Shown in pieces: positions 32,576 through 60,732 of a DNA stretch of 64,000 nt. The first letter of the stretch is position 1. Every line of letters starts with the position of its first letter. The position numbers and the translations under genes are program-made. The notes beneath the pieces were generated by a model. It worked only from the letters and a program-made list of their open reading frames with translations, was not told where the DNA came from and made no database searches. Origin of the DNA: a bacterium. Its GTDB lineage: Bacteria > Patescibacteriota > Microgenomatia > Levybacterales > UBA12049. Location: assembly GCA_021791545.1 (NCBI GenBank), contig JAJYWL010000016.1, positions 87,545-151,544 of the forward strand. Reading direction: 5' to 3'.

Positions 32576-33130
32576 ATGTTACCTAAAAGACTTTTACTCC
32601 TCTGGCTTCCTTTTGTAATAGTCTCAACTGTTTTATGTGGTCTTGTCTATCTTTCCGTTCAGCAAAATTATAGAATGTCGGCGAATGATCCCCAAATTCA
32701 AATTGCAGAAGATATAGCTACAGGTTTTCAAACAGGTATGACTTCTCCTCAGGCGTTTGTTTCTCCTTACAAAATAGACATGGCAAATAGTCTAGGTACC
32801 TTTGTTATGATTTTTGATAAAAACAGAAATAATGTTGCTTCAAATGTGCAGGTAGATGGAAAAACCCCAAGTTTACCAAAAGGAGTTTTTGATTATGTAG
32901 ATAAACGAGGGGAAAATAGATTTACCTGGCAACCAAAACCAGGAGTAAGAAGCGCCGTGGTAGTAGTTTCATATAAAGATCAGAAAGAACAAGGTTATAT
33001 TTTAGTAGGAAGATCTATGAGAGAAGTTGAAATAAGAGAGGAAAATCTTACTAAAATGATTTTTGTATTTTGGTTAGTTTCTCTTATAGGAACGTATATA
33101 CCCCTTTTCCTCCTAAGAAAAACAAAATAA
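32576..33130 (+). CDS. hypothetical protein with N- and C-terminal TM segments
   Basis: Hydrophobicity pattern only. Confidence 0.4.
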   Translation: MLPKRLLLLWLPFVIVSTVLCGLVYLSVQQNYRMSANDPQIQIAEDIATGFQTGMTSPQAFVSPYKIDMANSLGTFVMIFDKNRNNVASNVQVDGKTPSLPKGVFDYVDKRGENRFTWQPKPGVRSAVVVVSYKDQKEQGYILVGRSMREVEIREENLTKMIFVFWLVSLIGTYIPLFLLRKTK

Positions 33131-33223
33131 CTTCAAGCAAAATCTTAAATTATTCTTACTTGTTTCTTTCGCCTCTTTCTACTTTGGTTAATAGAATGTC
33201 CTAGAGTGGAAGGAGGTGTATTT

Positions 33224-33397
33224 ATGAAAAGAAAAGCAATTGTTATGACAGCGGCTGCACTTTCGTTTCTCTTTGCAGCAGGAGTTGTATTCGGACAAAC
33301 AGCGACTCCTACAACAAGCCCTACTCCAAAAGTTAGCCCTACTACTACGAGTGGGACTACCCCAAGTAGTGCTCCGGCAACAGGTTTTGGGGGTTAA
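33224..33397 (+). CDS. small secreted Thr/Pro-rich peptide (57 aa) ending ...SAPATGFGG
   Basis: AGGAGGTG sits 6 nt upstream of ATG 33224. Signal-peptide-like N-terminus (MKRKAIVMTAAALSFLFAAGVVFG). The mature part is about 33 aa of T/P/S-rich sequence. It lies immediately upstream of the sortase. Confidence 0.4.
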   Translation: MKRKAIVMTAAALSFLFAAGVVFGQTATPTTSPTPKVSPTTTSGTTPSSAPATGFGG

Positions 33398-33407
33398 CAG
33401 TATGTTG

Positions 33408-33433
33408 AACAGGTACTATAATTGGTACCTGTT
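33408..33433 (+). terminator. perfect 9-bp inverted repeat (AACAGGTAC-TATAATTG-GTACCTGTT) followed by GGTTTTA, between the small peptide gene and the sortase; weak terminator/attenuator
   Basis: Read directly from the sequence. Confidence 0.35.
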
Positions 33434-33439
33434 GGTTTT

Positions 33440-34018
33440 ATGAAAAAAGTATTATCTTTAGTCCTTATATCCTTAATAGTAATTTTTGCAGGAATAAAAA
33501 TAGGGGGAATATTTAGAGATAAAAGGAATGATAATACTCAGATAAAAAATACTGCAGTATCGGTTACTCCTTTTCTCTCCGAGCCTTCCAGGATTGTTAT
33601 TCCTAAAATAAATGTTGATGCAAATATTGAAAGCGTGGGATTAGATAATAAAAACGCGATGGATGTGCCAAAGAAGGTGGAAGATACTGCTTGGTATAAC
33701 CTTGGGAAGAAGCCCGGAGAAGTTGGAAATGCGGTGATAGATGGACATTATGATACTCAGACAGGTGCACCGGCAGTTTTTTATTACTTATCAAAATTAT
33801 CAAAAGGTGACGAGATAATAATTTATGCTAAAGACGGTTCGAAAAAGATATTTAAAGTGACAGAGGGAAAATTTTATCCTTATAATACTTTTCCAATACA
33901 ATACGTTTTTGGACCTACAAACAGAAAGAGGCTTGAATTAATAACATGTGGAGGAGTCTGGGATAAAACATCAAGAAATTATTCTGAAAGATTTGTCGTG
34001 AGTTCGGAAATGGAATAA
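33440..34018 (+). CDS. sortase (transpeptidase), membrane anchored
   Basis: N-terminal TM segment, catalytic His (VIDGHYD), TLXTC-type Cys motif (LITCGG), and Arg (ERFVV). The ATG at 33440 is preferred over the TTG at 33422. Confidence 0.75.
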   Translation: MKKVLSLVLISLIVIFAGIKIGGIFRDKRNDNTQIKNTAVSVTPFLSEPSRIVIPKINVDANIESVGLDNKNAMDVPKKVEDTAWYNLGKKPGEVGNAVIDGHYDTQTGAPAVFYYLSKLSKGDEIIIYAKDGSKKIFKVTEGKFYPYNTFPIQYVFGPTNRKRLELITCGGVWDKTSRNYSERFVVSSEME

Positions 34019-34022
34019 ATAA

Positions 34023-34775
34023 ATGAGCGGAACAATTAATAAAATGAAAAATTTTTACATTGGAACTTCAGGTTACAATTATAAACATTGGAAAGAAGTT
34101 TTCTATCCTCGCGGACTTTCTTATTCTAAGTGGTTAAATTATTATTCCCAACATTTTTCTACGGTTGAAATTAATGCTACATTTTACGGCAATTTTAGAA
34201 GAACTGTTTTTGAGAAATGGAAAGAAGAGACAGGCGATGATTTTATATTTACCCTCAAAGGACCAAGGTTAATCACTCATACAAAGAAGTTAAATGATAT
34301 TGATGAAAGTTTAGGGATATTCTTGGGGAATACGGAAGGTTTAGGTAAAAAGTTGAATATGATTTTATGGCAATTCCCTCCAAGTTTTAAGTGTGAAACA
34401 GAAACGTTAGGCAGATTAAAAGAATTTAGAAATAAGCTCCCAAAAAACATAAGACAAGCTTTTGAGTTTAGGCATAAATCTTGGTATGAAACTAATATGA
34501 AAGAAGAATTACAAAAAAATAAAATAAATATTGTTATTGCCCAATCTAAAAGATTTCCTGAAGAAAAGAACATAAACGGAGACTTTTATTACATAAGATT
34601 TCATGGACCTCAAAGACTGTATTCTTCATCTTATTCTCCTAAAGAACTTTTGGAGTGGGCTAACTTTGTAAAGAACGAAACAGATAATAAAGATGTTTAT
34701 TGTTACTTTAATAATGATGTTAGGGGATTTGCAGTAAGAAATGCTAAAGAGCTTAGTGCGTTAGTTATTTCTTAA
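34023..34775 (+). CDS. DUF72 (YecE-like) family protein
   Basis: The N-terminal FYIGTSGYNYKHW and the overall pattern are typical of DUF72. Confidence 0.7.
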   Translation: MSGTINKMKNFYIGTSGYNYKHWKEVFYPRGLSYSKWLNYYSQHFSTVEINATFYGNFRRTVFEKWKEETGDDFIFTLKGPRLITHTKKLNDIDESLGIFLGNTEGLGKKLNMILWQFPPSFKCETETLGRLKEFRNKLPKNIRQAFEFRHKSWYETNMKEELQKNKINIVIAQSKRFPEEKNINGDFYYIRFHGPQRLYSSSYSPKELLEWANFVKNETDNKDVYCYFNNDVRGFAVRNAKELSALVIS

Positions 34776-37226
34776 TTTAATCCTTTCATTTATTTGAAGT
34801 TTTTCTAATGCTATCGCCAGATCTGATTCCTCATCTAGTACGGGTGACCAAATATCGCCTATTTTTTCAAGTCTTTCAAATATGTTTTCAATATTAAAAT
34901 CTTTTGGGTTAAGACCTATCTTTACTTCTTCCCATCTTAGTGGTGTCGATACAGATGCTTTTTCAACAGGCTTAAGGCTATATGGCGCAGCAATTGTTTG
35001 TCCATCTCTATTCTGTAGGAAATCAAGATAAACTTTTTTCTTTCTGTTTTGTGGATTTCTTTCAACGCTAGTGAAACTGGGAATTTTTCTATGAATTATT
35101 TTGCATAAAATTTCGGCAAATTGTCTGCTTTGTTTGAACGAATATCTTGATTTCAATGGAACGAAAATATGAAGTCCTGTTGCTCCCGATGTTTTACAAT
35201 AACTATTAAGGCCCACTGCGTCTAGGATTTCTTTACTCCTTATGGCTGTTTCAACTACATAATCAAAAGATATGTCGAGTGGATCAAGGTCTATTACCAG
35301 ATAATCTGGTTTATCCAGACTGATAATTCTTGAAAACCATGGATTTATCTCAATGCATCCGAGATTTGCCATATAGACCAGAGTTTCTTTGTTTTGACAA
35401 ATTATGTAATTAATATTTTTTTCTTCCGACCCGGAATAAATGTCTTTAGTTTCAATCCATTTAGGAAAAAGTCCTCTTGTATCTTTTTGCCAGAATTTTT
35501 CTCCATTAATCCCATTTGGAAATCTATGAAGATTTTCAGGTCGATCTTTAAGGTAGGGAAGGATATAGGGCGAAATTTTATAGTAAAATTTTACGAGGTC
35601 TCTTTTGGTATAACCATCAGTTGGCCAATAAGTTTTTTCAAGATTAGAAAGTTTAAAATTTATCTTTTCGTCTTTTACGGTTTTTGCATTAACTGCTTTT
35701 TCTTTTCTTACGTTTTTTGGATCAAGGTCTTCCCTAAATCCTAAAAATTTAGGCTGACGCATTACTCCTTCATTTGTCCATTCTGTAAACTCCACCTCGC
35801 AAACAATAAGGGGTTTAATCCATGTAACCGGCATATCGGTTTTGGGAGGGCTTAAAAACGGACTTTCTTTTTGGCTAAGGTTTTCAAGCTTTTCTCCAAT
35901 TTCTTTCAATTCTGTATCGTTAAATCCTCCTCCCGAATTCCCTATATATATAAAATTTTTTTCATCATCATAGACACCAAGAATAAGAGAACCAAAGTAT
36001 TTTCTTGAACCACGTGGTTTAGTAAATCCTCCTATTACGGCTTCTTGTTGAAGGCGGCTTTTTATTTTTACCCAGTCTTCTGTTCTTTTTCCCTCTAAAT
36101 ATCTACTTTCCAAATTTTTTCCTATTATTCCCTCAAGTTTTTGTTTTGCTGCGGCATTAAAAAATGAAACTCCTCTTTCACTAATGAAATCGCTAATTTT
36201 TATGTTAGGAAGGTTGGGAAGTACATTCTTTAGTATGTCTTTCCTTTTATATAAAGGAAGATTTGTTAGATCAGAATCTTTGAAATATAGAATATCGAAT
36301 ATGTAATATACTAAATTTCCTTTTTCGGATCTTACAAAATTTTGAAGAAGCTGAAAACTTGATTTCCCATTTTTATCTAAGACTACGACTTCACCGTCCA
36401 AAATCATGTTTTCTTTTATTTCCTTTAAAGATTCTTGAATAGGTTTAAATTTTTCGTTAAAAGAAATATTATTTCTTGAAAGTAAGTTTGCCTTTCCATT
36501 ATTTATTACAGAAATTATCCTATAACCGTCCCATTTAATTTCAAATATCCAATTTCTGTTGTCAAAAGGATTTTTTATGAGGGTTGAAAGCATGGGCTTG
36601 ATAAAATCAGGCATTTTCTTTTTTGTAGCTCCGTCTAAATTTAGCGATTCTTTTGGTTTTTCTCCATTTTTTATTTCGTCCATACTTCTTCCGGTTTTTA
36701 CAGAAAGGTCCTGTTTTATGAGTTCATCTTCGTTTGCAAATTCATCTTTTCCTTTCATCAGCATCCATGAATTTTCGGAAGTATTTATTTTAAATAAGTG
36801 ATATTCCCCCTTAATTTTATTGCCGTTTAAGATTATCTTAAGATTTCCTTTTTCAAGTTCATCCAGTAATGTTTTCCCAATATCTCCCTTTGTCTCCAGC
36901 GGCATATAATTGCCCTGGTCCCAAACCATTACTGTACCCGCCCCATAATTTCTTTTTGGAATTGTTCCTTCGAAATCTCTGTAGTCGTACGGATGGTCTT
37001 CCACCATCATTGCGAGCCTTTTTATATTGGGATCGGAGGATGGTCCCTTGGGTATTGCCCAACTTTTGAGAACTCCTTCCATTTCCAAGCGGAAATCGTA
37101 GTGAAGATGAGAAGCTTGGTGTTTTTGAATAACAAATCTTAGGACACCCTTATTTTTTGTTGGTTTTCCTTGTGGTTCGGGCGTTTCATCAAATCTTCTT
37201 TTTTCATTATATTTGGCTAGGCTCAT
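34761..37226 (-). CDS. ligD: ATP-dependent DNA ligase D (NHEJ) with phosphoesterase, ligase and primase-polymerase domains
   Basis: N-terminal PE domain (RFVIQKHQASHLHYDFRLE). Ligase motif I KxDG (EIKWDGYR). C-terminal LigD polymerase domain. Confidence 0.85.
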   Translation of the reverse strand: MSLAKYNEKRRFDETPEPQGKPTKNKGVLRFVIQKHQASHLHYDFRLEMEGVLKSWAIPKGPSSDPNIKRLAMMVEDHPYDYRDFEGTIPKRNYGAGTVMVWDQGNYMPLETKGDIGKTLLDELEKGNLKIILNGNKIKGEYHLFKINTSENSWMLMKGKDEFANEDELIKQDLSVKTGRSMDEIKNGEKPKESLNLDGATKKKMPDFIKPMLSTLIKNPFDNRNWIFEIKWDGYRIISVINNGKANLLSRNNISFNEKFKPIQESLKEIKENMILDGEVVVLDKNGKSSFQLLQNFVRSEKGNLVYYIFDILYFKDSDLTNLPLYKRKDILKNVLPNLPNIKISDFISERGVSFFNAAAKQKLEGIIGKNLESRYLEGKRTEDWVKIKSRLQQEAVIGGFTKPRGSRKYFGSLILGVYDDEKNFIYIGNSGGGFNDTELKEIGEKLENLSQKESPFLSPPKTDMPVTWIKPLIVCEVEFTEWTNEGVMRQPKFLGFREDLDPKNVRKEKAVNAKTVKDEKINFKLSNLEKTYWPTDGYTKRDLVKFYYKISPYILPYLKDRPENLHRFPNGINGEKFWQKDTRGLFPKWIETKDIYSGSEEKNINYIICQNKETLVYMANLGCIEINPWFSRIISLDKPDYLVIDLDPLDISFDYVVETAIRSKEILDAVGLNSYCKTSGATGLHIFVPLKSRYSFKQSRQFAEILCKIIHRKIPSFTSVERNPQNRKKKVYLDFLQNRDGQTIAAPYSLKPVEKASVSTPLRWEEVKIGLNPKDFNIENIFERLEKIGDIWSPVLDEESDLAIALEKLQINERIKLRNN

Positions 37227-38026
37227 GTTTGATTGTATATTCTTTTTGGTTCTTCTTTTTCTTTTTCTTGTTCAAGACTTTTCTTTAAAAGCGCCATCAA
37301 ATCCGTTACGTTGGATGTTTCCTGGATAGTTTCTTCTTTGGCTGTTATTTTTTCTCCTTTCGCTTTTTCGTCTATTAGTTTTTTCAAATCTTCAGTATAG
37401 GTATCATGAAATTCTTCGGGCTTAAAATCTCCGCTTAATTGGTTTATTAAGGCAAGAGCCATTTCAATCTCTTTATCGCTAACCTCAAGGTTTGGTGCCT
37501 TAATTTCTTTTGCATCTTTTATCTCGCTTTGAAATCTCATTTGATTTAGGACGATAACATTGTCTAGGGGTTTTATGATTCCCAGCCTTTGTCTGGTTCT
37601 TATGACAAATTTTGCTATCCCTACTTTCTTACTTTTTCTTAAAGCTTCTATCATTAGAGAGTATGCTTTTTGAGCAGATTTGTCGGGTTCGAGATAATAG
37701 GGTTTCTCGTAGTAAACAGAATCTATTTCACCCTCATTTACAAACTCCAGCACATCTATTGTTTTAGTTTTTTTGACGTTAGCTTTAATAAAATCATCTT
37801 GTTGTAATATTACATAATCTCCTTTTTCATATTCATAACCTTTTACAAGTTCGTTATAGGGAACTTCTTTTTCTTCGGTTTTACACACTTTCGCATATCT
37901 AATGGGGGAATAGTCTTTCTTATGAAGAAGATCAAAATCCAAACCCTCATCTTTCGAAGCGGTATACATTTTTATGGGAATATTAACGAGCCCGAAACTT
38001 AAAGCTCCTGACCATATAGCTCTCAT
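37223..38026 (-). CDS. ku: Ku protein (NHEJ DNA end-binding)
   Basis: MRAIWSGALSFGLVNIPIKMY N-terminus is typical of bacterial Ku. Its stop overlaps the ligD start (operon). Confidence 0.85.
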   Translation of the reverse strand: MRAIWSGALSFGLVNIPIKMYTASKDEGLDFDLLHKKDYSPIRYAKVCKTEEKEVPYNELVKGYEYEKGDYVILQQDDFIKANVKKTKTIDVLEFVNEGEIDSVYYEKPYYLEPDKSAQKAYSLMIEALRKSKKVGIAKFVIRTRQRLGIIKPLDNVIVLNQMRFQSEIKDAKEIKAPNLEVSDKEIEMALALINQLSGDFKPEEFHDTYTEDLKKLIDEKAKGEKITAKEETIQETSNVTDLMALLKKSLEQEKEKEEPKRIYNQT

Positions 38027-48868: not shown

Positions 48869-51058
48869 TTATTTCTTCACGGAAATTATTAGGGTCTGAT
48901 TATTTTGATAAATTATTTTTCCTAACTTCTTGAATTTTTCGATATTTAGAGAAGGATATTTTTCTCTTTCCAAGTCTCCGATAAATATAAGGTCTATTCC
49001 ATATTTTTTAATTAATTTTTGTGTAAGTTTAATATCATTTGTTTCATAGATTGTTTTTATATCTTCTATTCTTGGGGAAACAACTTCATAGCTATTTCTC
49101 CAGAACCATTCATGTACTGTCCATCCTAGTACTGTAGGAAGGCCCGTGTTTACGGATATCCTTCCGTAATCCGTATAGGAATCTCCTTGAGCTTCCAGGA
49201 TTATTGGTTGTCCTTTTATATTCTTATTGATCCACGATATTGCTTCGTAATCTGAAGGATAAAGAGTCTTAAGGTAGTTTATTCCATTAAGACCATTATA
49301 AGTTCGTAGATTATTGTAATAAGAGTTAATAGAGAAAATAGGATATATTGAAACAAGATAGAAAAGAACGCCTGCAGGAATTAACAATAAGACAAAGATG
49401 ATCCATTTTATAAAACTTTTTGATACAACAGACTTTATGTTAAAGACGATATTTGTAACTGCAAAGCTGCTTGCGATAGAGAGCATAATAAAAATTTGAT
49501 AAGCAACCTTAAACATTGTATTTGCTCTGGGGTAAGTGGCAAAAATATCTTTAAAATAAACAGTCTCGGGGATTAAAATTAAAAATGCTCCCGTAAACAT
49601 CAGTAAAAGAATGAACTTATCGCTTGGGTTTATTTTTAATTTACTTTTAAATTTCCAAGTCAAAAATAAGAGGAATGAAATTATCCAAAAGAAGAAAAAT
49701 CCGTAAAGTATTAAAAGTTCCCAAAAATATGAGTGTTGACAGACAGGGTCAAAAACAAAAGGACCAATCTTGCCTATGTTAACAAGAAATTGTGGAGGAC
49801 AAAGAAAGCTTATTCCGGAGACGAAAGGTTTATAAAAAATATTAAAAGGTAGAGTAAAGATAAAATAAAAAATAGAAGTAAGAGCAACGGGAACTACAAA
49901 ATTTTTCAAGTTTTTCATGTTTACTGTTTTTTTCGAAAACGAATTAAATGAAGTGAAAAGAAATAGAAGGACAACCAAGAAAAGATATATTATTCCATCC
50001 CAGGCATTAGTCATATACATGATGGCAAGCATAAGACTTAAAAGAAGAATATAGAAAATGAAGAATCCTCTTCGGAGAAAATTAAGTTTTATTTCTTTGT
50101 CTTTTATTTTAAGAAATAGCGAAAAGATTAAGGCGATAGCAAATAAAGTAAAAGGTGTATCGAGTAAGTGTCCGTGTAGATCGGAAAGCGCCAGGGCATA
50201 TGAGGGGAATTCATGTATTGTATGATAAATGAACCTCGTAGCTGAGGGGTACCAGTAGGAGTTTGGAAATGTCTGGGGCGAAAAAACCAATTGCCAAAAA
50301 GGAATAGGATTGTCTCCTTTATAAGGTACAAAAAATGCATAGACGGTTTGAAGATTGCCCGAAAGAGTAACTAAAAAAGCCGTAAGTAATCCTCCTAGAA
50401 AAGCTTTCCATTTTTTTAGATTAATTTGTCCGAGTAAGTTATATCCTATTGAAAAAGAGGAAGAGAAAATAAGAGAGAATAAAGTAGCGATCATAAGATT
50501 ATAGGTGATATAAGAGGGAATACTTGAAAGCTTGGTAAGTAGTGCAGTAACAAAATGCCCATAATAGTAATAGTTAATCGTAAAAGGAGCAAACCACATG
50601 TCTTTTGGAGGAAAGTAATCACTTCTTAAAAGAGTATTAACGAAACCAAAATCCATAAACTTTTCTATCCCATGTATATCCGGTTGATAGGACCTAATGA
50701 TTGCCCAAAACGATAACGAAAGAATAAATATAATTTCTTCGACAAGAAAGATTTTCCATTTAGTTTTTACGAGTAAGGTAAAGTCATGCAAAAGACTTCT
50801 TTTGTAAAAAGCAAAAACTCCAAATAGAAGAAGATAACCTAAGATAACGATATATGAGTTTAGAAAGTTGAACTTAAGAAGTCTTAAGGTCCCGAGTAAA
50901 AAAACGGTATAAGAAACTAAAGAAATGCCAAGAATTTTTGAGAATATGTAACCTTTGTCTTGAAATTTAGAAAAGACGTAAGAAGATAAAGGAAGGAATA
51001 ATAATCCAATTATAAAAATAACGAACCACCAAATGGAGGCATTAATTAAGTCAGACAT
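48869..51058 (-). CDS. Chlor_Arch_YYY/DUF2298-type large polytopic membrane protein (GT-C-like) with a C-terminal soluble domain
   Basis: Conserved motif INYYYYGHFVTALL. About 16 predicted TM helices. Confidence 0.55.
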   Translation of the reverse strand: MSDLINASIWWFVIFIIGLLFLPLSSYVFSKFQDKGYIFSKILGISLVSYTVFLLGTLRLLKFNFLNSYIVILGYLLLFGVFAFYKRSLLHDFTLLVKTKWKIFLVEEIIFILSLSFWAIIRSYQPDIHGIEKFMDFGFVNTLLRSDYFPPKDMWFAPFTINYYYYGHFVTALLTKLSSIPSYITYNLMIATLFSLIFSSSFSIGYNLLGQINLKKWKAFLGGLLTAFLVTLSGNLQTVYAFFVPYKGDNPIPFWQLVFSPQTFPNSYWYPSATRFIYHTIHEFPSYALALSDLHGHLLDTPFTLFAIALIFSLFLKIKDKEIKLNFLRRGFFIFYILLLSLMLAIMYMTNAWDGIIYLFLVVLLFLFTSFNSFSKKTVNMKNLKNFVVPVALTSIFYFIFTLPFNIFYKPFVSGISFLCPPQFLVNIGKIGPFVFDPVCQHSYFWELLILYGFFFFWIISFLLFLTWKFKSKLKINPSDKFILLLMFTGAFLILIPETVYFKDIFATYPRANTMFKVAYQIFIMLSIASSFAVTNIVFNIKSVVSKSFIKWIIFVLLLIPAGVLFYLVSIYPIFSINSYYNNLRTYNGLNGINYLKTLYPSDYEAISWINKNIKGQPIILEAQGDSYTDYGRISVNTGLPTVLGWTVHEWFWRNSYEVVSPRIEDIKTIYETNDIKLTQKLIKKYGIDLIFIGDLEREKYPSLNIEKFKKLGKIIYQNNQTLIISVKK

Positions 51059-51074
51059 AATAAAGAATTATACA

Positions 51075-52841
51075 TCACTTGATCTTGTAAAGAGTAAATT
51101 CTGGATTTTGATAAACGACAGGATATTTATTATCAAAAAGATTTTTATCTACTCCCATATCTATGATATCTTCGTTACTTAATAAGACATATTTTATAGG
51201 AAACTCTTTTAAAAGAGGATTATTATTTGAAGGATTTCTATAAAAATTTTCAAGTAAATTTTGTCTTGATAAATAATTTATTCCTCTACTCCAAAGCCAT
51301 CCCGGATATCCAACTATTACCGGTCTTCCTGCCAGAGAATCAACCGGATTACGGTGATATGTACCCGTAAGAATCAAATCTTTTTGACTGATGTTTTGTT
51401 TAATATAATCTGCAGTTTCTCTGGCATAAGGGTCAAAAATAACAGGAAGGGAATTGTAGGGCGTTGCAATTCTGGGAAGCATATCTAAGACTCCGGAGAA
51501 AAGAGAGAAGAATGAGAAAAGAATAATCAAGGTAAGTCCCAGATATTTTTTGTTTAATGCGATTTCTTTGAGTAAAAGTAAAATTACAGGAACAGCAAAG
51601 AACTGAAAATAAACAAATATTTTATTATCGTCAAAATCCCAAGGTTGAAACCTTATTAACTGTCCACATAAGAAAAGTAAAATAGAAGCAAGGGAAAATG
51701 ATAGGAAGATAAGAAAACCCTTTTTTAAAAAATATTCTTTTTTCCATAAGATAATCAGAAAAGAAATAACGAATAGAGGAAGAATGACTCCAAAATTTAG
51801 CCAGAGGAATTGCAAATAATAAATACTGAGGGCACTTGGTAAAACGCCGGGAGGGAAAACGACGGAACCAATTGTAGGAGGGACCATCCAGCCAAACCTA
51901 AATACAAGAAAGCTGTCTTTTACATATGTACTCGGCTGTAATAAAAAAAGAAGCTGTGGAAGAGAAATTATAAAACCTACGATTCCCGTAAAAAGAATTC
52001 TTTTTACGAAAGGAAAATCTTTTCTAATAAAGCTTATGAAAAGAAAAGAAAAAATAGTAATTACTGCGGCAACAAAACTATGAGTATGCATCATCGGGAG
52101 AAGTCCCAGGGAAATCCCGCTTAGATAAATCCATTTTTTGCTTTTATTTTTTTCAAGAATTAATAATGTTGCAAGAAAAAGCATAAAGCCTGTCATTCCT
52201 AAAAAGAATGCTCTCTGATGTAAAAGGACTAAGCTAAGCGGAGCACCAAAATCTATACTTTGCATGGGATATTTTGCATCAAGCCTGACGACTGTAGTCA
52301 AATGATTTTGAATAAAATAGGTAATAAACTGGGTGAAATTTAATCCTTTTCTTAGAGCATCTCCCAAATACTCAAATCCCGCGACTCCACTTCCCAAAAA
52401 GAATATCAAGAGAGAAAGAAAAGCGAGTCTTCTGTCTTTAAGAAAACGATTATAGATATAAAAGATAAGAAGAATATTTAATGAAGCAAATACAAAAGAA
52501 GGAAAAAGAAAAGAGAATGAAAAAAGACCAGTGAATCTTAGGAGTAAGCCGCTAATTAGGTTAATAATGAAAGGATAATCAAGTTTTTGTCCATAAAAAA
52601 TAGGTTCGTTAAGATTGAAATTATTTTCAAATGCAAATTTTGTAACTTGGGTAAGATGAAGAGGAATATCTCCATAACCCGTAATTGTGCTTCTTATATT
52701 TCCGTCTCCACCTATATAGAAAGTTTGAGAAATTAGAAATAGGTGAAACATTATAAAAGCCGAAAGAAGGATAACAAGAAGTAAATTTTTTCTGTCGTAG
52801 TACGAAAGAATTTTTCTTTTAAAGGATTTTAAAAAACTCAT
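51075..52841 (-). CDS. large polytopic membrane protein, putative GT-C fold glycosyltransferase
   Basis: 588 aa, multi-TM. It lies adjacent to the YYY protein. No specific family recognised. Confidence 0.4.
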   Translation of the reverse strand: MSFLKSFKRKILSYYDRKNLLLVILLSAFIMFHLFLISQTFYIGGDGNIRSTITGYGDIPLHLTQVTKFAFENNFNLNEPIFYGQKLDYPFIINLISGLLLRFTGLFSFSFLFPSFVFASLNILLIFYIYNRFLKDRRLAFLSLLIFFLGSGVAGFEYLGDALRKGLNFTQFITYFIQNHLTTVVRLDAKYPMQSIDFGAPLSLVLLHQRAFFLGMTGFMLFLATLLILEKNKSKKWIYLSGISLGLLPMMHTHSFVAAVITIFSFLFISFIRKDFPFVKRILFTGIVGFIISLPQLLFLLQPSTYVKDSFLVFRFGWMVPPTIGSVVFPPGVLPSALSIYYLQFLWLNFGVILPLFVISFLIILWKKEYFLKKGFLIFLSFSLASILLFLCGQLIRFQPWDFDDNKIFVYFQFFAVPVILLLLKEIALNKKYLGLTLIILFSFFSLFSGVLDMLPRIATPYNSLPVIFDPYARETADYIKQNISQKDLILTGTYHRNPVDSLAGRPVIVGYPGWLWSRGINYLSRQNLLENFYRNPSNNNPLLKEFPIKYVLLSNEDIIDMGVDKNLFDNKYPVVYQNPEFTLYKIK

Positions 52842-54253
52842 ATGGTAAAGCTTCCGCGAGATAGAAGGAAAAGAAGGGCAGCAAAAATAGTTATTCCTAT
52901 TCCCATGAATCCTGCAAGTATTATATTAGGATTTCCGCTTGCCGGAAGAGGTGATACTGATGCAGTAGGACTTGCAAAAATTGTCGGTGTTGCCGACGCA
53001 GAATTGTCTATGAATGGCGTTACGGTAATTACGGGAGTAGCGGCAACAGTTACCAAAGGAGTCGGTGTTGCGGTAGGAAGAACTGTAGGAGTTGGAGTGC
53101 TTGTGGGTAGGGGTGTAGCAGAAGGAATAGGAGTAGGAGAAATTGTCGTAGTCCCGTTAGGCAATTGAGTTCCAGCAGCATATACGGTAAAGGATTCGGT
53201 CAGTGTTTTTACAAGACCCGAAGCATCTGTTGTGATAATTGAAATTGTATGTTGTCCTGGAGAGAGGGGAGTAGTTGGCCTGTAAGACCAGTTTCCGCTC
53301 GAGTCGGTTTTTACGGTAGTATTTATCTGGCTATCCGAGTGGATAATAATTTGTACATCTTTATTGGGAACAGCTGTTCCTTTAAATTCCGGTTTTTGAT
53401 CGGTTAGTCCTTGTCCACTTGTCGGAGATGTTATCTTAATATTTGCGGAAGAAGTACTCGTAAGAGACGGAAAAGAAGACAATGATCCCGAAGGAGTTGA
53501 GATAGGGTTTTGGCCTTGTGTGAAATCATAATCTTTACCCAATATTACGGGCGGGATAGGATTTATTTGATTAATTGAAGCTGAAACATTGGAGTTTCCC
53601 ATAGGAGAAATGATGAGCATTCTTAAAATAGAATCAGACGAGAAATTAAAATAGGAAGTTAAAGTAGAATTTCTAACCGAGTTTAATGGGATAAGATATG
53701 ACCCGTCACTTTTTACTAAAGCAGAGATTACCTGGGAATCGGCGGTTGTAAGATAGATTACGGTATCGGAAAGGTTATTTCCATCTGTAATTATTTTACC
53801 AACGATAGGCTTCTGGTCAGACGGACTTCCTATGGATGCTCCCGTTGTTACAAGAAAAAAACTTCCATTATTGTAGTAACTGGTAGAGCCGCTGGTAATA
53901 GTAAAGTAATAAGTAGTCGTGGGTTTAAGGTTTCTTACGGAAAAATAATGGGACTTATAAGTTTTTATAGTTGATTGTCCTTGATCTCTGTCGTCGAGTG
54001 CATTTTGCCCAAGTTTCTTGTCGCTTCCGTATGAAAGAGATCCTGTAACCGAGTCACTTGTAAGGTAGGAAACAGTAAAGGAATTATCGGAAATATTTGT
54101 TATTCTTACGTTTTGAGGTTCTTGTCCTGGTGCCGCTTTACTTACGAAAATGACCCCCTTGTTAACTAAAAAAGTGGTAACTCCGACTCCAATTACTATG
54201 ACAAGAATTCCAAACAGAGTTGGAATTCTTCTATCCCAAAAATTTTTCCTCAT
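52838..54253 (-). CDS. cell-surface protein with an N-terminal signal anchor, FN3/Ig-like beta-rich regions, a T/P-rich linker and a C-terminal LPASG-hydrophobic-SRGS sorting-signal-like tail
   Basis: The C-terminus is SPLPASGNPNIILAGFMGIGITIFAALLFLLSRGSFTI. TPTPT repeats are present. Confidence 0.45.
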   Translation of the reverse strand: MRKNFWDRRIPTLFGILVIVIGVGVTTFLVNKGVIFVSKAAPGQEPQNVRITNISDNSFTVSYLTSDSVTGSLSYGSDKKLGQNALDDRDQGQSTIKTYKSHYFSVRNLKPTTTYYFTITSGSTSYYNNGSFFLVTTGASIGSPSDQKPIVGKIITDGNNLSDTVIYLTTADSQVISALVKSDGSYLIPLNSVRNSTLTSYFNFSSDSILRMLIISPMGNSNVSASINQINPIPPVILGKDYDFTQGQNPISTPSGSLSSFPSLTSTSSANIKITSPTSGQGLTDQKPEFKGTAVPNKDVQIIIHSDSQINTTVKTDSSGNWSYRPTTPLSPGQHTISIITTDASGLVKTLTESFTVYAAGTQLPNGTTTISPTPIPSATPLPTSTPTPTVLPTATPTPLVTVAATPVITVTPFIDNSASATPTIFASPTASVSPLPASGNPNIILAGFMGIGITIFAALLFLLSRGSFTI

Positions 54254-54588
54254 GGTAATAAATTACCTCCAGGCGAGGCTTGCGCAGAAGAACTCGCCGG
54301 CAAAGAAGGCGTTGGTGACGCGATAGGAGTGGGTGTAAGTTGGGGAACGGGTGTAGGTGTGATAACGGCAGAAGCCGAGGCATTCTCAAAAACTGGATTT
54401 ATTTGTGTTCTTGCCTTTAGTTTATCTAATGTTGCCATATCAAAAATAGGAGAGATTGGTGAAATTTGTGAATCTAAAGTTTGAGAGACAGTCGATGTCC
54501 TCAAGTTATGGAAAACACCAAAAATTATCCAAAGAATTACAAATATTACGCTTGGCACCAGAATCATTAAAATATCTTTTCTTTTCAT
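54250..54588 (-). CDS. small membrane-anchored Pro/Thr-rich protein (possible PilP-like component)
   Basis: N-terminal TM segment and a P/T-rich C-terminus. It is translationally coupled within the pilN-pilO gene string. Confidence 0.3.
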   Translation of the reverse strand: MKRKDILMILVPSVIFVILWIIFGVFHNLRTSTVSQTLDSQISPISPIFDMATLDKLKARTQINPVFENASASAVITPTPVPQLTPTPIASPTPSLPASSSAQASPGGNLLP

Positions 54589-55193
54589 TGTTTAAAGTAA
54601 ACTGTTCCTCTAATACTTACCTGTAAGCCTCCTCCGGTATCGGATTTTTTAGTTACTGTTACAGAGTCGACTGTAAGAATTCTTTGGAAATTTGTTACGT
54701 CCGAAAGGAAAGAGGATATATCCGAATAATTTCCGTCGGCGCTAAAGTTAAAATTATAACTATAGAATTTTTTAGGAGGAAGATTTGTATCGGCCACAAC
54801 TTGGTTTGTCTGGAATGTTGTAAGAGTAAGATTATATTTACTCATAAGAGCTTGTACTTGGGCCATTACTAGTGGAACATCCGGTTTTTGAGGAATAGCA
54901 GATAAAACAACGGGTATGTCTTGTTGAATTTGAGCATATTTGTCTTGAAGTGTCGAAAGGTTGTTAATTTTTGTTTGAAGTGCTTGATCAACGGCCTGAT
55001 CATCTGACAATTCTTTCTGAAGCTGGGCAATAGTAGAAAGAGTAGGGCTTAAGGCAAAAAGTCCGAAAAATATTATGGCTATCAAGGTTAGAACAATTGT
55101 TGTAAATTTCTGGGTTTTTTCTTCCTTGAACGAAGGAAGAAGTTCCATATATTTATTTTTTTGTAAATCTTTAAATAAATTAGTTACCTGCAT
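54585..55193 (-). CDS. type IV pilus assembly protein PilO-like
   Basis: Single N-terminal TM segment, a coiled-coil, then an alpha/beta periplasmic domain. It lies directly downstream of pilN. Confidence 0.5.
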   Translation of the reverse strand: MQVTNLFKDLQKNKYMELLPSFKEEKTQKFTTIVLTLIAIIFFGLFALSPTLSTIAQLQKELSDDQAVDQALQTKINNLSTLQDKYAQIQQDIPVVLSAIPQKPDVPLVMAQVQALMSKYNLTLTTFQTNQVVADTNLPPKKFYSYNFNFSADGNYSDISSFLSDVTNFQRILTVDSVTVTKKSDTGGGLQVSIRGTVYFKQ

Positions 55194-55734
55194 TTTTTGC
55201 TCCTTTCAATGTCGCTGTTATGCTTACCGTTAGAGACGAAGAACTTGATTTATTTTCTATTTTATCGATACTAACCGATTCAACAGGAGAATATTTCCTG
55301 AGTTGATTTGCAAGGGAAGTAAGTGAATTAACGGAATCTACATTAGCATCTATTCTTATTTGTCCTGAGCTCACGGCCAAAACGTTGTATGTTACTCCCT
55401 GAGGAGTAAAGGCAATGACATCTTTAAAGATATTTACATTGGCCGCTGAATCTTGGGAAAAAGAAGACGCGAGAAGAAGTCTTTCCTGAAGGTTTCTGAA
55501 TTTAGCTTCCTGATCCTTGAAATTATAGACTATCGCTTGTTTCTGTTTTACTGCCTGTTTTGTGTCAATAATTTGTTGATCGAGAGTAAACCTATAAAGA
55601 AAAGCTGCAAGAGCAATAAGTTCGACTACTACCACCAAAATTCTTCCTGTAGTTAGGGACCAGTTAATAACACGGTCTACCGTTTTGCCCTTCTGATTGG
55701 AAAGCAAATTAATAGAGCTGCCCTTTTTTTGCAT
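55180..55734 (-). CDS. pilN: type IV pilus assembly protein PilN
   Basis: Conserved N-terminal INLL motif (SSINLLSNQKG), followed by a single TM segment and a periplasmic domain. Confidence 0.55.
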   Translation of the reverse strand: MQKKGSSINLLSNQKGKTVDRVINWSLTTGRILVVVVELIALAAFLYRFTLDQQIIDTKQAVKQKQAIVYNFKDQEAKFRNLQERLLLASSFSQDSAANVNIFKDVIAFTPQGVTYNVLAVSSGQIRIDANVDSVNSLTSLANQLRKYSPVESVSIDKIENKSSSSSLTVSITATLKGAKNAGN

Positions 55735-57828: not shown

Positions 57829-59565
57829 ATGACAGACAAGAATAACATAAGAAATTTTGCGATCATTGCACATATCGATCATGGTAAATCTACTCTTGCC
57901 GACAGGTTTCTGGAAATAACGAGTACTGTTTCCAAAGACAAGATTAAAGAACAGTTTCTTGACCAGAATCCTATTTCAAGAGAAAGAGGAATAACGATTA
58001 AACTCGCACCTGTAAGGATGAAATACTCCTTAAATGGCAGAGATTATGAATTGAATCTAATCGATACTCCCGGCCATATAGATTTTTCCTACGAAGTTTC
58101 AAGGACTCTGGCAGCGTGCGACGGAGCAATCCTTTTAATAGACGCGACACAGGGAATTCAGGCCCAGACAGTCGCACATTTAAAAGCTGCACAAAAACAG
58201 AATCTTTTCATAATCCCTGCAATAAACAAGATTGATCTGGATACTGCAAAAACAGAGGATGTCATAAGAGACCTCGATGAAATGTTCGGATTTAAAAGGG
58301 AAGAGATATATCTTGTTTCCGCTAAAACGGGAAAGAATGTAGAAGAATTATTAAAAGGAGTAATAGAAAAAGTTCCATCCCCAAAGGGTGACTTGGAAAA
58401 ACCCTTAAGAGCTTTGGTTTTTGACGCACAGTTTGACGAACATAGAGGAGTAATAATATTCGTAAGGATATTCGACGGAAAATTAAGAAAGAATGAAAAG
58501 ATAGAGTTCTTCCAAAGCAATGTAAAAGTAGATGCTTCAGACGTAGGTTATTTTTCTCCATTCTTAATTCCCAAAGAAGACCTTTCTTGTGGAGAAATAG
58601 GATATATAGTAACGGGAATAAAAAACATCAGGGAAACAAGAATCGGAGATACGATTACTCAGGAAGGTTTTAAAGAAACAACAACTCCTCTTGCCGGTTA
58701 TCAGATGCCGAAACCTATGGTTTTCTTCGGCGTCTATCCAAAGTCTTCTGACGAGTATGTACATTTAAGAGAAGCTTTGAATAAGCTCTCGTTAAACGAC
58801 GCTTCACTTTCTGTTTCATCCGAGTATTCTGCCTTTTTAGGAAGCGGTTTCAGGGTCGGATTCCTGGGACTTTTGCACGCAGAGATAGTCAAGGAAAGAT
58901 TAAAACAGGAAGAGGGAATAGATCCTTTGCTTACAATGCCTAGAGTCTTGTATAAGGAAGAAAACGAGCAGATGTTTGAGCCGTATATGGACCTTACGAT
59001 ATATACTCCTTCGGAATACGTAGGCGGAGTAATGAATGTTGCTCAAAACAGGAAAGGAAACCTTAAGAACCTCTCATATCATAAAGACAGTGCAATATTG
59101 GAATATGAAATGCCTTACAGTATGTTTATAAGGGGATTATCCTCCGAGATTAAAACTGTTTCTTCCGGTTTTGCGAGTTTGGATTATGAATTAATAGGGT
59201 ATAAGGCGGCAAATTTGGTAAAAATGGATATTCTTGTGAACGGAAATCCGATAGATGTTCTTTCGGAACTTGTATATTCCGATGAACTGAATTATGTAGC
59301 AAGAGAAAAAACAGAAAAACTAAAAGAGTTACTGGATAGACAGCAATTTAGGCAGATAATCCAGGCAGCAGTAGACAGCCATATTCTTGCAAGGACGGAA
59401 ATTCCTCCTTATAGAAAAGACGTTCTCGCGAAGATGTCGGGTGGAGACAGGACAAGAAAAGATAAACTCTTGGAAGCACAGAAAAAAGGAAAATCAAAAA
59501 TGATAAATATTGCAAAGATAGATATCTCCCAGAAAGCTTTACTTTCTATGTTAGAGGGCAAATAG
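57829..59565 (+). CDS. lepA: translation elongation factor 4 (LepA)
   Basis: GTP-binding motifs (AHIDHGKST, DTPGHIDF, NKID) and LepA-specific N-terminal conservation (IRNFAIIAHIDHGKSTLADR). Confidence 0.9.
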   Translation: MTDKNNIRNFAIIAHIDHGKSTLADRFLEITSTVSKDKIKEQFLDQNPISRERGITIKLAPVRMKYSLNGRDYELNLIDTPGHIDFSYEVSRTLAACDGAILLIDATQGIQAQTVAHLKAAQKQNLFIIPAINKIDLDTAKTEDVIRDLDEMFGFKREEIYLVSAKTGKNVEELLKGVIEKVPSPKGDLEKPLRALVFDAQFDEHRGVIIFVRIFDGKLRKNEKIEFFQSNVKVDASDVGYFSPFLIPKEDLSCGEIGYIVTGIKNIRETRIGDTITQEGFKETTTPLAGYQMPKPMVFFGVYPKSSDEYVHLREALNKLSLNDASLSVSSEYSAFLGSGFRVGFLGLLHAEIVKERLKQEEGIDPLLTMPRVLYKEENEQMFEPYMDLTIYTPSEYVGGVMNVAQNRKGNLKNLSYHKDSAILEYEMPYSMFIRGLSSEIKTVSSGFASLDYELIGYKAANLVKMDILVNGNPIDVLSELVYSDELNYVAREKTEKLKELLDRQQFRQIIQAAVDSHILARTEIPPYRKDVLAKMSGGDRTRKDKLLEAQKKGKSKMINIAKIDISQKALLSMLEGK

Positions 59566-60732
59566 TATTACTAACCCCAAGACCGAGAGGATTGCTCCCA
59601 AAGCTCCGACTGTTATTACTGTATTGCCGGGCCCTGTAGGTGCAAGTGTAGGTGTTGCAGATGCTTCAAGTGTAGGCTGAGCCGTTATTGCTACGGTAGG
59701 TGTAGCCGTTACGGTTCCCGCATCGCTTATCGTTATAGCCTGTGTGCAGTTTGTCGCTACGCTTGCGTTACCGTTTGAATCAGTGAGAGTTGCGGTTGCG
59801 GTATAATTTCCGGCTGTTGAATAGGTGTGAGAAGTGACTGCACTTACTGTCTGTGTTCCAATTCCTCCTGTTTGAGTAAGATCTTGATTTTGTCCGTCTC
59901 CGAAATCAAATGTTACTTTAGTGATATTTGAAACAGTGCTCGAGCCGTTTACGGTAAACGTTATTGCATAAGGAGCAGTTCCTGTCGCGCTTCTATCAAG
60001 AGTAAGGCTTGAACATACAGGAGCTTCGGGTGCTGCCGTTACGACTGCCGTAGGTGAAGGACTCACGGTCGGAGTAGCAGATGGCGTAACCGTAGGGGAA
60101 ACACTGGGAATAATAGAGGGAGTAGGAGATGCTGTAAGATCGGCAATGTTAATAGTTATTGGAGGAGCGGACGAAAGAACAGGCTCGCTATACTGGTCGG
60201 ATGTACCCAATGATCTTACGTCTGTCTGTGGAGCTGCTCCAAAGCTTACTTGTGTTGGAGTACTTCCCGTTGTTGCCAAAGCCTTAAAGTTAACGGTCGC
60301 GACTCTTGTGGGAGCAGTAATAACATTTTGTGGAGTATTTCCCGTACTTAAAGTAAAGGTAATTGTACCTGCCGTATTATCTACGGTCGGACCCGCAAGA
60401 ACGGTAGGCTTAAAGGTAGAACCTGAAGATGTCTGCCATGAATTTATAGTTACATCTGTCTGGGAAGTAGAAAGTTTCGCAGGATCATATTTTACCGCTA
60501 CCTTCAAGAAAGTTACCTGGTTTATATTTGAAGGGTCGACATTAATATCTACGTTTATAGTGTCTCCGACCTTGGCGTTTGTTGTAGAAGGAATAAATTT
60601 AAGTGTTGTTGCAGGTTGTGCTCCTGTCTTTGTCTTTTGCTGTTGTTGGACCAGATATACGGTTAAGGGGATAGCTACAAGAAGTACAACTACAAAACCT
60701 AATAATATTAATTTTTTAGGTGATAATGACAT
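59551..60732 (-). CDS. cell-surface protein with an N-terminal signal anchor, Ig/cohesin-like beta-rich domains and a C-terminal LAPTG-hydrophobic segment (LAXTG-type sorting signal)
   Basis: The C-terminus is ATPTLAPTGPGNTVITVGALGAILSVLGLVILFAL. It is T/S-rich. Confidence 0.45.
   Translation of the reverse strand: MSLSPKKLILLGFVVVLLVAIPLTVYLVQQQQKTKTGAQPATTLKFIPSTTNAKVGDTINVDINVDPSNINQVTFLKVAVKYDPAKLSTSQTDVTINSWQTSSGSTFKPTVLAGPTVDNTAGTITFTLSTGNTPQNVITAPTRVATVNFKALATTGSTPTQVSFGAAPQTDVRSLGTSDQYSEPVLSSAPPITINIADLTASPTPSIIPSVSPTVTPSATPTVSPSPTAVVTAAPEAPVCSSLTLDRSATGTAPYAITFTVNGSSTVSNITKVTFDFGDGQNQDLTQTGGIGTQTVSAVTSHTYSTAGNYTATATLTDSNGNASVATNCTQAITISDAGTVTATPTVAITAQPTLEASATPTLAPTGPGNTVITVGALGAILSVLGLVILFAL

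Follow-up and report, generated by a model that had tools for sequence, protein, structure and literature searches.

The mini-protein and sortase locus

We analyzed a 64,000-nucleotide stretch of DNA, hereafter the window, from a bacterium of the Levybacterales (Patescibacteriota; GenBank assembly GCA_021791545.1, contig JAJYWL010000016.1, positions 87,545 to 151,544 of the forward strand). The subject of this work is a pair of adjacent genes in this window, which has a G+C content of ~34%: a 57-residue open reading frame (ORF), referred to here as the mini-ORF and its product as the mini-protein, and the sortase gene that follows it on the same strand. An earlier note, made from the sequence alone, had placed a 57-aa ORF, a strong ribosome-binding site, a hairpin and a sortase gene at this locus, and all four were confirmed at their positions. 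The same 57-aa product has been called by gene callers on public contigs. A search of the 64-kb window for a second sortase gene or a second mini-protein gene found none, leaving one of each. The features of the locus, with coordinates of the window, are as follows.

33208..33218 (+): Shine-Dalgarno sequence of the mini-ORF, GGAAGGAGGTG, 5 nt 5' of the ATG, read from the sequence
33224..33397 (+): mini-protein gene, an ORF of 57 aa plus stop, product MKRKAIVMTAAALSFLFAAGVVFGQTATPTTSPTPKVSPTTTSGTTPSSAPATGFGG; unannotated sortase-linked family
33224..33295 (+): residues 1-24, a Sec signal peptide as predicted by inspection and family alignment: MKRK, then a hydrophobic core, with V-F-G ahead of the expected cut
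33296..33361 (+): Thr/Pro/Ser-rich linker QTATPTTSPTPKVSPTTTSGTT, its first residue the invariant Gln25
33362..33385 (+): extended sorting motif P47-S-S-A50-P51-A-T53-G54, with the predicted sortase cut at Thr53/Gly54
33386..33394 (+): tail F-G-G, the predicted leaving group, with no hydrophobic segment or charged tail beyond it
33408..33433 (+): intercistronic hairpin of 11 pairs with a 4-nt loop; GGTTTT lies between it and the sortase ATG
33440..34018 (+): class F-like sortase, 192 aa, without a Shine-Dalgarno sequence
33746..33748 (+): codon CAT of catalytic His103, in DGHYD, invariant in alignments A1 and A4
33947..33949 (+): codon TGT of catalytic Cys170, in LITC, invariant in alignments A1 and A4
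33989..33991 (+): codon AGA of conserved Arg184, without exception in A1 and to at least 90% in A4

Read in order, the parts of the mini-protein are MKRKAIVMTAAALSFLFAAGVVFG / QTATPTTSPTPKVSPTTTSGTTPSS / APATG / FGG. Its C-terminal peptide spanning the predicted T/G cut is VPSSAPATGFGG; the stretch with the predicted cut after Thr, in the form of a synthetic peptide, is TTPSSAPATGFGG, and the C-terminal fragment that was considered with or without FGG is VSPTTTSGTTPSSAPAT. For the sortase we took the ATG at 33440 rather than the TTG at 33422 as the start codon, because all homologues begin with MKK.

The mini-protein belongs to a widespread and undescribed family

Neither Pfam nor NCBIfam gave a match for the mini-protein. 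A first single-sequence search returned relatives of 52-73 aa, a word-index search with a profile of 34 members returned 288 clusters, all of 50-99 aa and without a Pfam domain, and a profile search run exhaustively against 1.84 billion representatives returned 340 of them at E<=1e-3, the best 150 of which were all 52-115 aa and matched from end to end. Where these relatives are named at all they are called 'hypothetical'. The view that the mini-ORF is a real, conserved coding gene of an undescribed family is therefore upheld. A small ORF that was not conserved, or that lacked a coding signature, would have spoken against it; instead, its clusters are widespread, and in a strain that is 1.6% divergent the mini-ORF carries 2 differences, both of them synonymous, with 0 differences in the hairpin.

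The architecture of the family is constant, and consists of a basic n-region with a ~20-residue hydrophobic core, a small-x-small site, a Gln, a linker, the sorting motif and a short tail. At the predicted signal-peptide site, position -1 is A or G, position -3 is a small or aliphatic residue, and position +1 is an invariant Gln. This Gln, at the predicted mature N-terminus, was present in 34/34 and 60/60 aligned members (Gln25 of the window, codon 33296..33298), usually with Thr next to it, and it may serve as a pyroglutamate (pyroGlu) cap or as a nucleophile. As a crude control, Gln followed the signal peptide in 1/37 proteins of the same loci, a figure that is not relied on since the heuristic also takes transmembrane anchors and cytoplasmic proteins. 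The mature part is 20-60 residues long, rich in Thr, Pro and Ser, and without a Pfam domain; the start of its linker, QT(A/S/T)TP, is conserved, and the length of the linker varies widely among members.

Two assignments could be discarded on composition. Lys occurs in only 7 of the 122 mature peptides and there is no folded domain, making the proposed role of a pilin building block unlikely; a sortase-assembled class C pilin was likewise rejected, as the pilin-motif Lys and the Ig-like (CnaA/CnaB) domains are both missing. Cys is absent from the window mini-protein and from the aligned family, and the +1 residue is Gln, so that there is no lipobox. With the lipobox Cys absent, a Braun-type lipoprotein was ruled out.

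The C-terminus is a sorting motif without a retention tail

The mini-protein had been described as ending in an xPxTG-like motif with no membrane anchor behind it. This is a sorting-type motif that is found throughout the family: in 233/233 members inspected, xPxTG was followed by only 1-8 residues (mostly 3-4) and never by a membrane anchor. The motif was APATG in 108 members, APSTG in 52 and APNTG in 28. Positions P51, T53 and G54 were invariant, P47 and A50 were conserved in at least 90% of members, and the first two residues of the tail were usually FG, RA, RG, MG or LG, with RAE, MGGN and FGPN among the other tails. All four synonymous codons were used across loci at each invariant Ala, Pro, Thr and Gly position, and conservation therefore acts at the protein level. 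Compared to the canonical LPXTG signal, the Pro-x-Thr-Gly core is present with Ala instead of Leu at position 1, while the hydrophobic segment and the positively charged tail are both absent, the window protein ending in FGG.

Loci of the same scan that come from Bacillaceae offer a direct comparison. Here, the class F sortase gene is directly preceded by a gene for a surface protein, with DUF4397 or otherwise, whose C-terminal region reads (M)P-x-x-M-P-K-T-G-(M/L/F)-G-G and then continues with ~10-12 spacer residues, a hydrophobic stretch and a K/R tail, making up a canonical sorting signal. Upon alignment on the Gly, the mini-protein pattern V/x-P-x-x-A-P-x-T-G-Φ/R-G/A equals the extended motif of these Bacillaceae proteins, down to the Pro at -7 and the positions that follow the cut, and the form common to both is ΦPxx[A/M]PxTG[Φ/R]G. 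Because the Bacillaceae neighbors carry this same extended motif together with a full anchor, we regard the mini-protein tail as a genuine sorting motif.

DUF4397 and other proteins ending in (E/D)MPKTG(M/L/F)GG, with a transmembrane segment and K/R tail, lie immediately ahead of class F sortases at loci L051:3063-3872, L066:2399-3733 and L083:2203-3693 and at similar Bacillaceae loci. The only NCBIfam match to these neighbors was a weak, sub-threshold one to the 'GVDTG_CTERM' sorting domain, and a search of the literature on DUF4397 and sortases found no paper on the pairing. In Chloroflexota (Caldilineaceae and relatives), ferritin-like proteins (PF13668) with a twin-arginine translocation (TAT) signal precede class F sortases (L036:2867-3541, L063:2698-3465, L072:2735-3493 and L074:3282-3482). 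They end in MPxTGRG(G/E) plus 10-17 residues, without a membrane segment, and represent a putative second kind of tail-less class F substrate. The general picture suggested by these loci is of a class F subfamily that is encoded behind its own substrate, the version found in the candidate phyla radiation (CPR) apparently being reduced to a signal peptide, a stalk and the motif.

The adjacent gene encodes a class F-like sortase

The sortase has a transmembrane helix at its N-terminus (residues 2-24) and, beyond a linker, its catalytic domain (residues 49-191), and matches Pfam Sortase (PF04203) with 79 bits against a cut-off of 26.6. Classification with hidden Markov models, the check proposed in the earlier note, placed class F first by far: the NCBIfam class F model (NF033748) scored 146.1 bits over model positions 9-154 of 155, under the curated cut-off of 166 bits but ahead of the next class by 116 bits (GN 29.7, E 26.7), with GN, E, D and C all at 30 or less. 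The class E-like, LAXTG-type assignment suggested earlier was not borne out, its 26.7 bits comparing to a cut-off of 160. NCBI applies the name 'class F sortase' to homologues at 37-56% identity from Levyibacteriota, Patescibacteria group, Methylomirabilota, Bacillus, Rossellomorea and Priestia. By these scores, the window enzyme is class F-like.

In the alignments, His103, Cys170 (LITC, TLxTC-type) and Arg184 are conserved, indicating an intact catalytic triad. The AlphaFold2 model (predicted local distance difference test score, 92) contains an N-terminal transmembrane helix, a disordered linker and a sortase barrel. Its nearest matches in PDB are class C, E and A sortases at ~20% identity, and thus no close class F structure exists. 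We also considered LAXTG specificity with respect to the linked substrate and rejected it: motif position 2 is Pro in 233/233 members, and A-P-x-T-G is a variant of LPXTG at position 1. Judged by the motifs of their linked substrates, the CPR class F enzymes appear to be APxTG-specific.

The mini-ORF is strictly linked to the sortase gene

The pairing of the two genes is not peculiar to the window. At every mini-protein locus with downstream DNA (the window, L003-L009, L011, L092, L094 and L095), the next gene is a sortase gene on the same strand, and the neighboring genes differ at each locus, with L003-L009 flanked by GT2, MFS and ArsP genes. The linkage is thus strict, and homologs of the mini-protein beside sortases in other genomes, for which the earlier note had proposed a scan, do occur. 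For a reverse census, the 80 genome loci that come nearest to the window sortase in similarity were examined, and ~43 of them had a mini-ORF directly upstream (at L089, before the second sortase). Pair-bearing loci are mostly from Microgenomates-type CPR, including Daviesbacteria, Levyibacteriota and Roizmanbacteria. The species of the window itself is not among the GTDB representatives, where the best sortase identity is 48%.

One genome carries two separate mini-protein and sortase pairs (L092 and L094, on a 1.61-Mb contig of GCA_965230895.1). Their tails read APATGLRAN and APATGKAE, and one of the pairs lies amid DsbA, DsbD and HMA genes. Tandem class F sortase genes occur at L060:2304-3543 and L089:3692-5342; the mini-ORF of L089 sits between the tandem sortases, and the mini-ORF upstream of those at L060 ends in an aberrant tail (PPEAGFGGSQR). 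In the window, the gene immediately before the mini-ORF, at 32576..33130 (+), encodes a protein of 184 aa that has a hydrophobic segment at either terminus. It had no Pfam or NCBIfam match, and was found conserved in the same species only and not at other mini-protein loci.

The layout of the locus is predicted to favor peptide over enzyme

The two genes differ sharply in their translation signals. At least 6/7 matches to AGGAGGT at the right distance were found for 31/34 mini-ORFs versus 1/29 sortase genes. Between them, the window carries the hairpin that the earlier note had described as a perfect inverted repeat with a T-run. The perfect 9-bp repeat (AACAGGTAC / GTACCTGTT) stands, and the stem comprises 11 pairs (one G-U, 4 G-C) around the 4-nt loop, with a predicted free energy (dG) of about -16 kcal/mol; the T-run is of 4 T only (GGTTTT), abutting the sortase ATG. 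In ~25/35 orthologous spacers we found a hairpin of 10-20 bp, with dG of -18 to -34 kcal/mol and z of -4 to -8, its 3' end often ~5-20 nt from the sortase start. The presence of the small ORF in hundreds of clusters and the recurrence of the hairpin at such z scores speak against chance for both features. The hairpin sequence itself is unconserved, and at ~8 loci the mini-ORF and sortase gene abut, with the peptide kept and no hairpin. The hairpin may act as a leaky terminator, as a stabilizer of the 3' end or as an occluder of sortase translation initiation. Each of these roles predicts much more peptide than enzyme. A layout favoring the peptide, as had been proposed, is therefore suggested by a hairpin and a strong mini-ORF Shine-Dalgarno sequence that are both conserved across loci.

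Rfam gave no match in the spacer, the only Rfam match in the window being one tRNA. A promoter-like TTAACA-17-TATAAT (33394..33422, 11/12 matches), in which the -10 box is the hairpin loop, was rejected: 9 such sequences were found versus 8.6 expected in shuffles, it was not seen at other loci, and it is taken as chance. At the abutting junctions of L018:3857 and L019:4001, the last Gly-Gly codons of the mini-ORF (GGAGGT) are the only Shine-Dalgarno-like sequence of the sortase gene.

A probable dedicated substrate of the adjacent sortase

Family conservation, strict linkage, a motif common to anchored substrates, an intact catalytic triad and a conserved expression asymmetry all support one interpretation, which we favor with moderate confidence: the mini-protein is an abundant, dedicated and anchor-less substrate of the adjacent sortase, and is probably ligated to the cell wall, a destination that we infer. 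The abundance of the peptide, removal of its signal peptide, the cut at T/G and the identity of the acceptor are predicted from sequence, and the steps would be as follows. The two genes would form a substrate-enzyme cassette from which the mini-protein is made in large amounts, owing to its perfect Shine-Dalgarno sequence, and exported by Sec, and the membrane-anchored sortase in small amounts, its gene having no Shine-Dalgarno sequence and a stable hairpin just upstream of the start codon. In place of a C-terminal anchor, the uncleaved signal peptide would hold the substrate at the membrane during capture by the sortase. Signal peptidase I would cut just before Gln25, giving a disordered Thr/Pro-rich peptide of ~30 residues with the C-terminus ...P-x-x-A-P-x-T-G-(Φ/R)-(G/A). 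Cys170 would attack the Thr-Gly bond, releasing the tail of 2-4 residues (FGG in the window) and forming a thioester with Thr53, and the peptide would then pass to an amine acceptor, most probably a peptidoglycan precursor; we consider the latter the most plausible acceptor because the window holds a gene for the MurJ lipid II flippase. The outcome would be a wall-bound stalk of ~29 residues, possibly pyroGlu-capped, and a wall decorated with many short, protease-resistant, possibly glycosylated peptides that consist of the stalk alone.

Several observations weigh against this interpretation. Retention of canonical substrates depends on a hydrophobic segment together with a charged tail, and the mini-protein has neither. 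Simple wall anchoring does not explain an invariant N-terminal Gln, and the acceptor could be something other than peptidoglycan. The class F score of the enzyme falls below its curated cut-off, as given above. A clear U-tract follows the hairpin in only ~6 of the 25 loci whose sequences were read by eye. Finally, the tail type (RA or ΦG) follows the sortase clades and clusters in a manner that is inseparable from shared ancestry. As phylogeny gives the same pattern, co-evolution of tail type and sortase cluster was not counted as evidence.

The missing retention tail could instead mean that the peptide is not retained. If the sortase hydrolyzed its substrate, or transferred it to water or a small amine, the matured peptide would be released as a signal, an adhesive or an antimicrobial. 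Sortases do hydrolyze their substrates when a nucleophile is absent, the tail is lacking in 233/233 members, and the order of small structural gene, hairpin and enzyme gene resembles that of peptide-precursor operons. However, the low complexity of the peptide and a linker that varies in both length and sequence are a better fit to a spacer than to a ligand, and the partners of related class F sortases are fully anchored substrates with the same motif. We consider such a released peptide unlikely.

The retention problem would also be solved if the signal peptide were never removed. The mini-protein would then be a tether between membrane and wall, analogous to Braun's lipoprotein, its N-terminal segment staying as a signal anchor, its C-terminal Thr joined to peptidoglycan and its linker setting the distance. 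The small size of the protein, its very strong expression signals, the ~20-residue hydrophobic segment and a topology that places the motif outside the cell are all consistent with such a tether. Against it, the whole family keeps a site of the signal-peptidase-I type, with small residues at -1 and -3, and there is neither a lipobox nor a Cys. We regard a tether as quite unlikely.

The invariance of Gln25, for which there is otherwise no explanation, raises the question of whether its alpha-amine might itself be the nucleophile, resolving the Thr-thioester of another peptide to yield a polymer or that of the same peptide to yield a ring. The peptides lack Lys, which makes the N-terminus their only amine, and each pair has its own sortase. 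In this event, CPR class F sortases would join mini-peptides head to tail into a Thr/Pro-rich, mucin-like surface polymer or ring, and the product of a 57-aa gene would in effect be built up extracellularly into a wall polymer made of protein. On the other hand, an N-terminal Gln readily cyclizes to pyroGlu, which removes the amine, and we know of no natural sortase that uses a Gln N-terminus as its nucleophile. Head-to-tail ligation strikes us as very unlikely.

Strict one-to-one gene linkage would equally be expected of a pseudo-substrate or regulator that occupies the active site, or of an adaptor that becomes joined to some other surface protein. The expression layout, however, points to far more peptide than enzyme, as would be atypical of a regulator, and true anchored substrates carry the same motif; we regard both roles as highly improbable. 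Least credible is a cis-acting leader in which translation of the small ORF and the hairpin merely regulate the sortase and the peptide is functionless. The intergenic hairpin and a sortase gene that lacks a Shine-Dalgarno sequence would agree with such a leader. Against it stand a motif kept at the amino-acid level while synonymous codons vary freely, a conserved predicted signal peptide, a hairpin whose sequence is unconserved and which ~8 peptide-bearing loci do without, and a spacer without any Rfam match.

Comparison with known sortase systems

We compared the cassette to systems with related parts. The closest are the Bacillaceae pairs of class F sortase and anchored substrate (L051, L057, L061, L066, L077, L080, L081, L083, L085 and L090), whose enzymes belong to the same sortase subfamily at 42-48% identity, with the substrate gene directly upstream and the same extended motif. 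Their substrates are folded, measure 269-496 aa and bear a complete sorting signal, whereas that of the window has 57 aa and no folded domain, and ends 3 residues past the motif. Canonical LPXTG substrates of housekeeping (class A) sortases have an N-terminal signal peptide, such as is predicted for the mini-protein, and share with it the Pro-x-Thr-Gly core and a Thr/Pro-rich, wall-spanning stalk; the mini-protein differs in the Ala at position 1 and in having no hydrophobic segment, charged tail or passenger domain. Class C sortase and pilin cassettes likewise encode a dedicated sortase beside its own substrate, but the present pair has no pilin-motif Lys, no Ig-like domains and a different class of sortase. 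Braun's lipoprotein, Lpp, of E. coli is very small and highly expressed, with its C-terminal residue covalently attached to peptidoglycan. Lpp has a lipobox and lipid anchor, a coiled coil and a Lys that is attached by L,D-transpeptidases, none of which is found in the mini-protein.

Reviews and more recent papers portray class F sortases as little understood. Among class F enzymes, that of Cutibacterium acnes has been characterized and recognizes LPXTG (PMC8225981). In Actinoplanes, deletion of four class F sortase genes gave no detectable phenotype, and the same paper states that their physiological roles 'remain unknown' (PMC13251363). SspA, a disordered spore-surface protein of Actinoplanes missouriensis, requires a class E sortase and bears a sorting signal at its C-terminus (PMC13293333, PMC13251363); it resembles the mini-protein in its disorder, is attached to the wall by a sortase, and differs in its class E dependence and in its sorting signal. 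Sortases are reported to be near-ubiquitous in Microgenomates (PMC6744442). A search of the literature on class F sortases, CPR and Microgenomates sortases, APATG, and small ORFs of Patescibacteria found no description of the mini-protein and sortase pair. A paper on the CPR 'Pam' pilus was set aside as unrelated, its pilins using donor-strand exchange. The cassette is thus a sortase-substrate pair whose substrate has neither a passenger domain nor a retention tail, and is widespread in CPR and unannotated.

Class F sortases are widespread, and a linked, probably very abundant mini-substrate provides a concrete cognate candidate that is testable with a synthetic peptide. The mini-protein family also calls into question the textbook view that no sortase substrate can do without a hydrophobic segment and charged tail, and the pair points to a major unannotated surface component of the ultra-small CPR bacteria, whose surfaces govern attachment to their hosts. 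The laboratory-evolved class A variants F40, A1-22 and cW11 of S. aureus SrtA accept APxTG (PMC8248031, PMC11638967), and their targets APATG and APSTG are the commonest motifs of the natural mini-protein family. APATG/APSTG are residues 29-33 of histones H3.1 and H3.3, the target of these variants. If the CPR enzymes are APxTG-specific, they would be natural enzymes that recognize a native histone H3 sequence, and possible ligation tools, a specificity for which S. aureus sortase A needed engineering (PMC8248031).

Other genes of the window

Two proteins encoded far from the locus were reported in the earlier note to end in LAPTG and LPASG, each followed by a hydrophobic tail, and both endings were found as described.

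59551..60732 (-): surface protein with cohesin and PKD domains, ending ...TLAPTGPGNTVITVGALGAILSVLGLVILFAL, LAPTG plus hydrophobic tail
52838..54253 (-): fn3/Big_13 protein, ending ...PLPASGNPNIILAGFMGIGITIFAALLFLLSRGSFTI, LPASG plus hydrophobic tail plus RGSFTI, in an operon that contains PilO

Neither protein fits the extended class F motif; they are possible further substrates of the sortase. The fn3/Big_13 'LPASG' protein belongs to an operon-like block, 48869..55734 (-), together with a PilO-like protein (54585..55193) and two membrane proteins, one of 588 aa that matches no family and one with DUF2298 (GT-C-like). This block may be a pilus or surface-glycosylation locus. Just downstream of the sortase and DUF72 genes, LigD (with ligase, primase-polymerase and phosphoesterase domains) and Ku are encoded at 34761..38026 (-), forming a complete non-homologous end joining module in a genome that is small and AT-rich.

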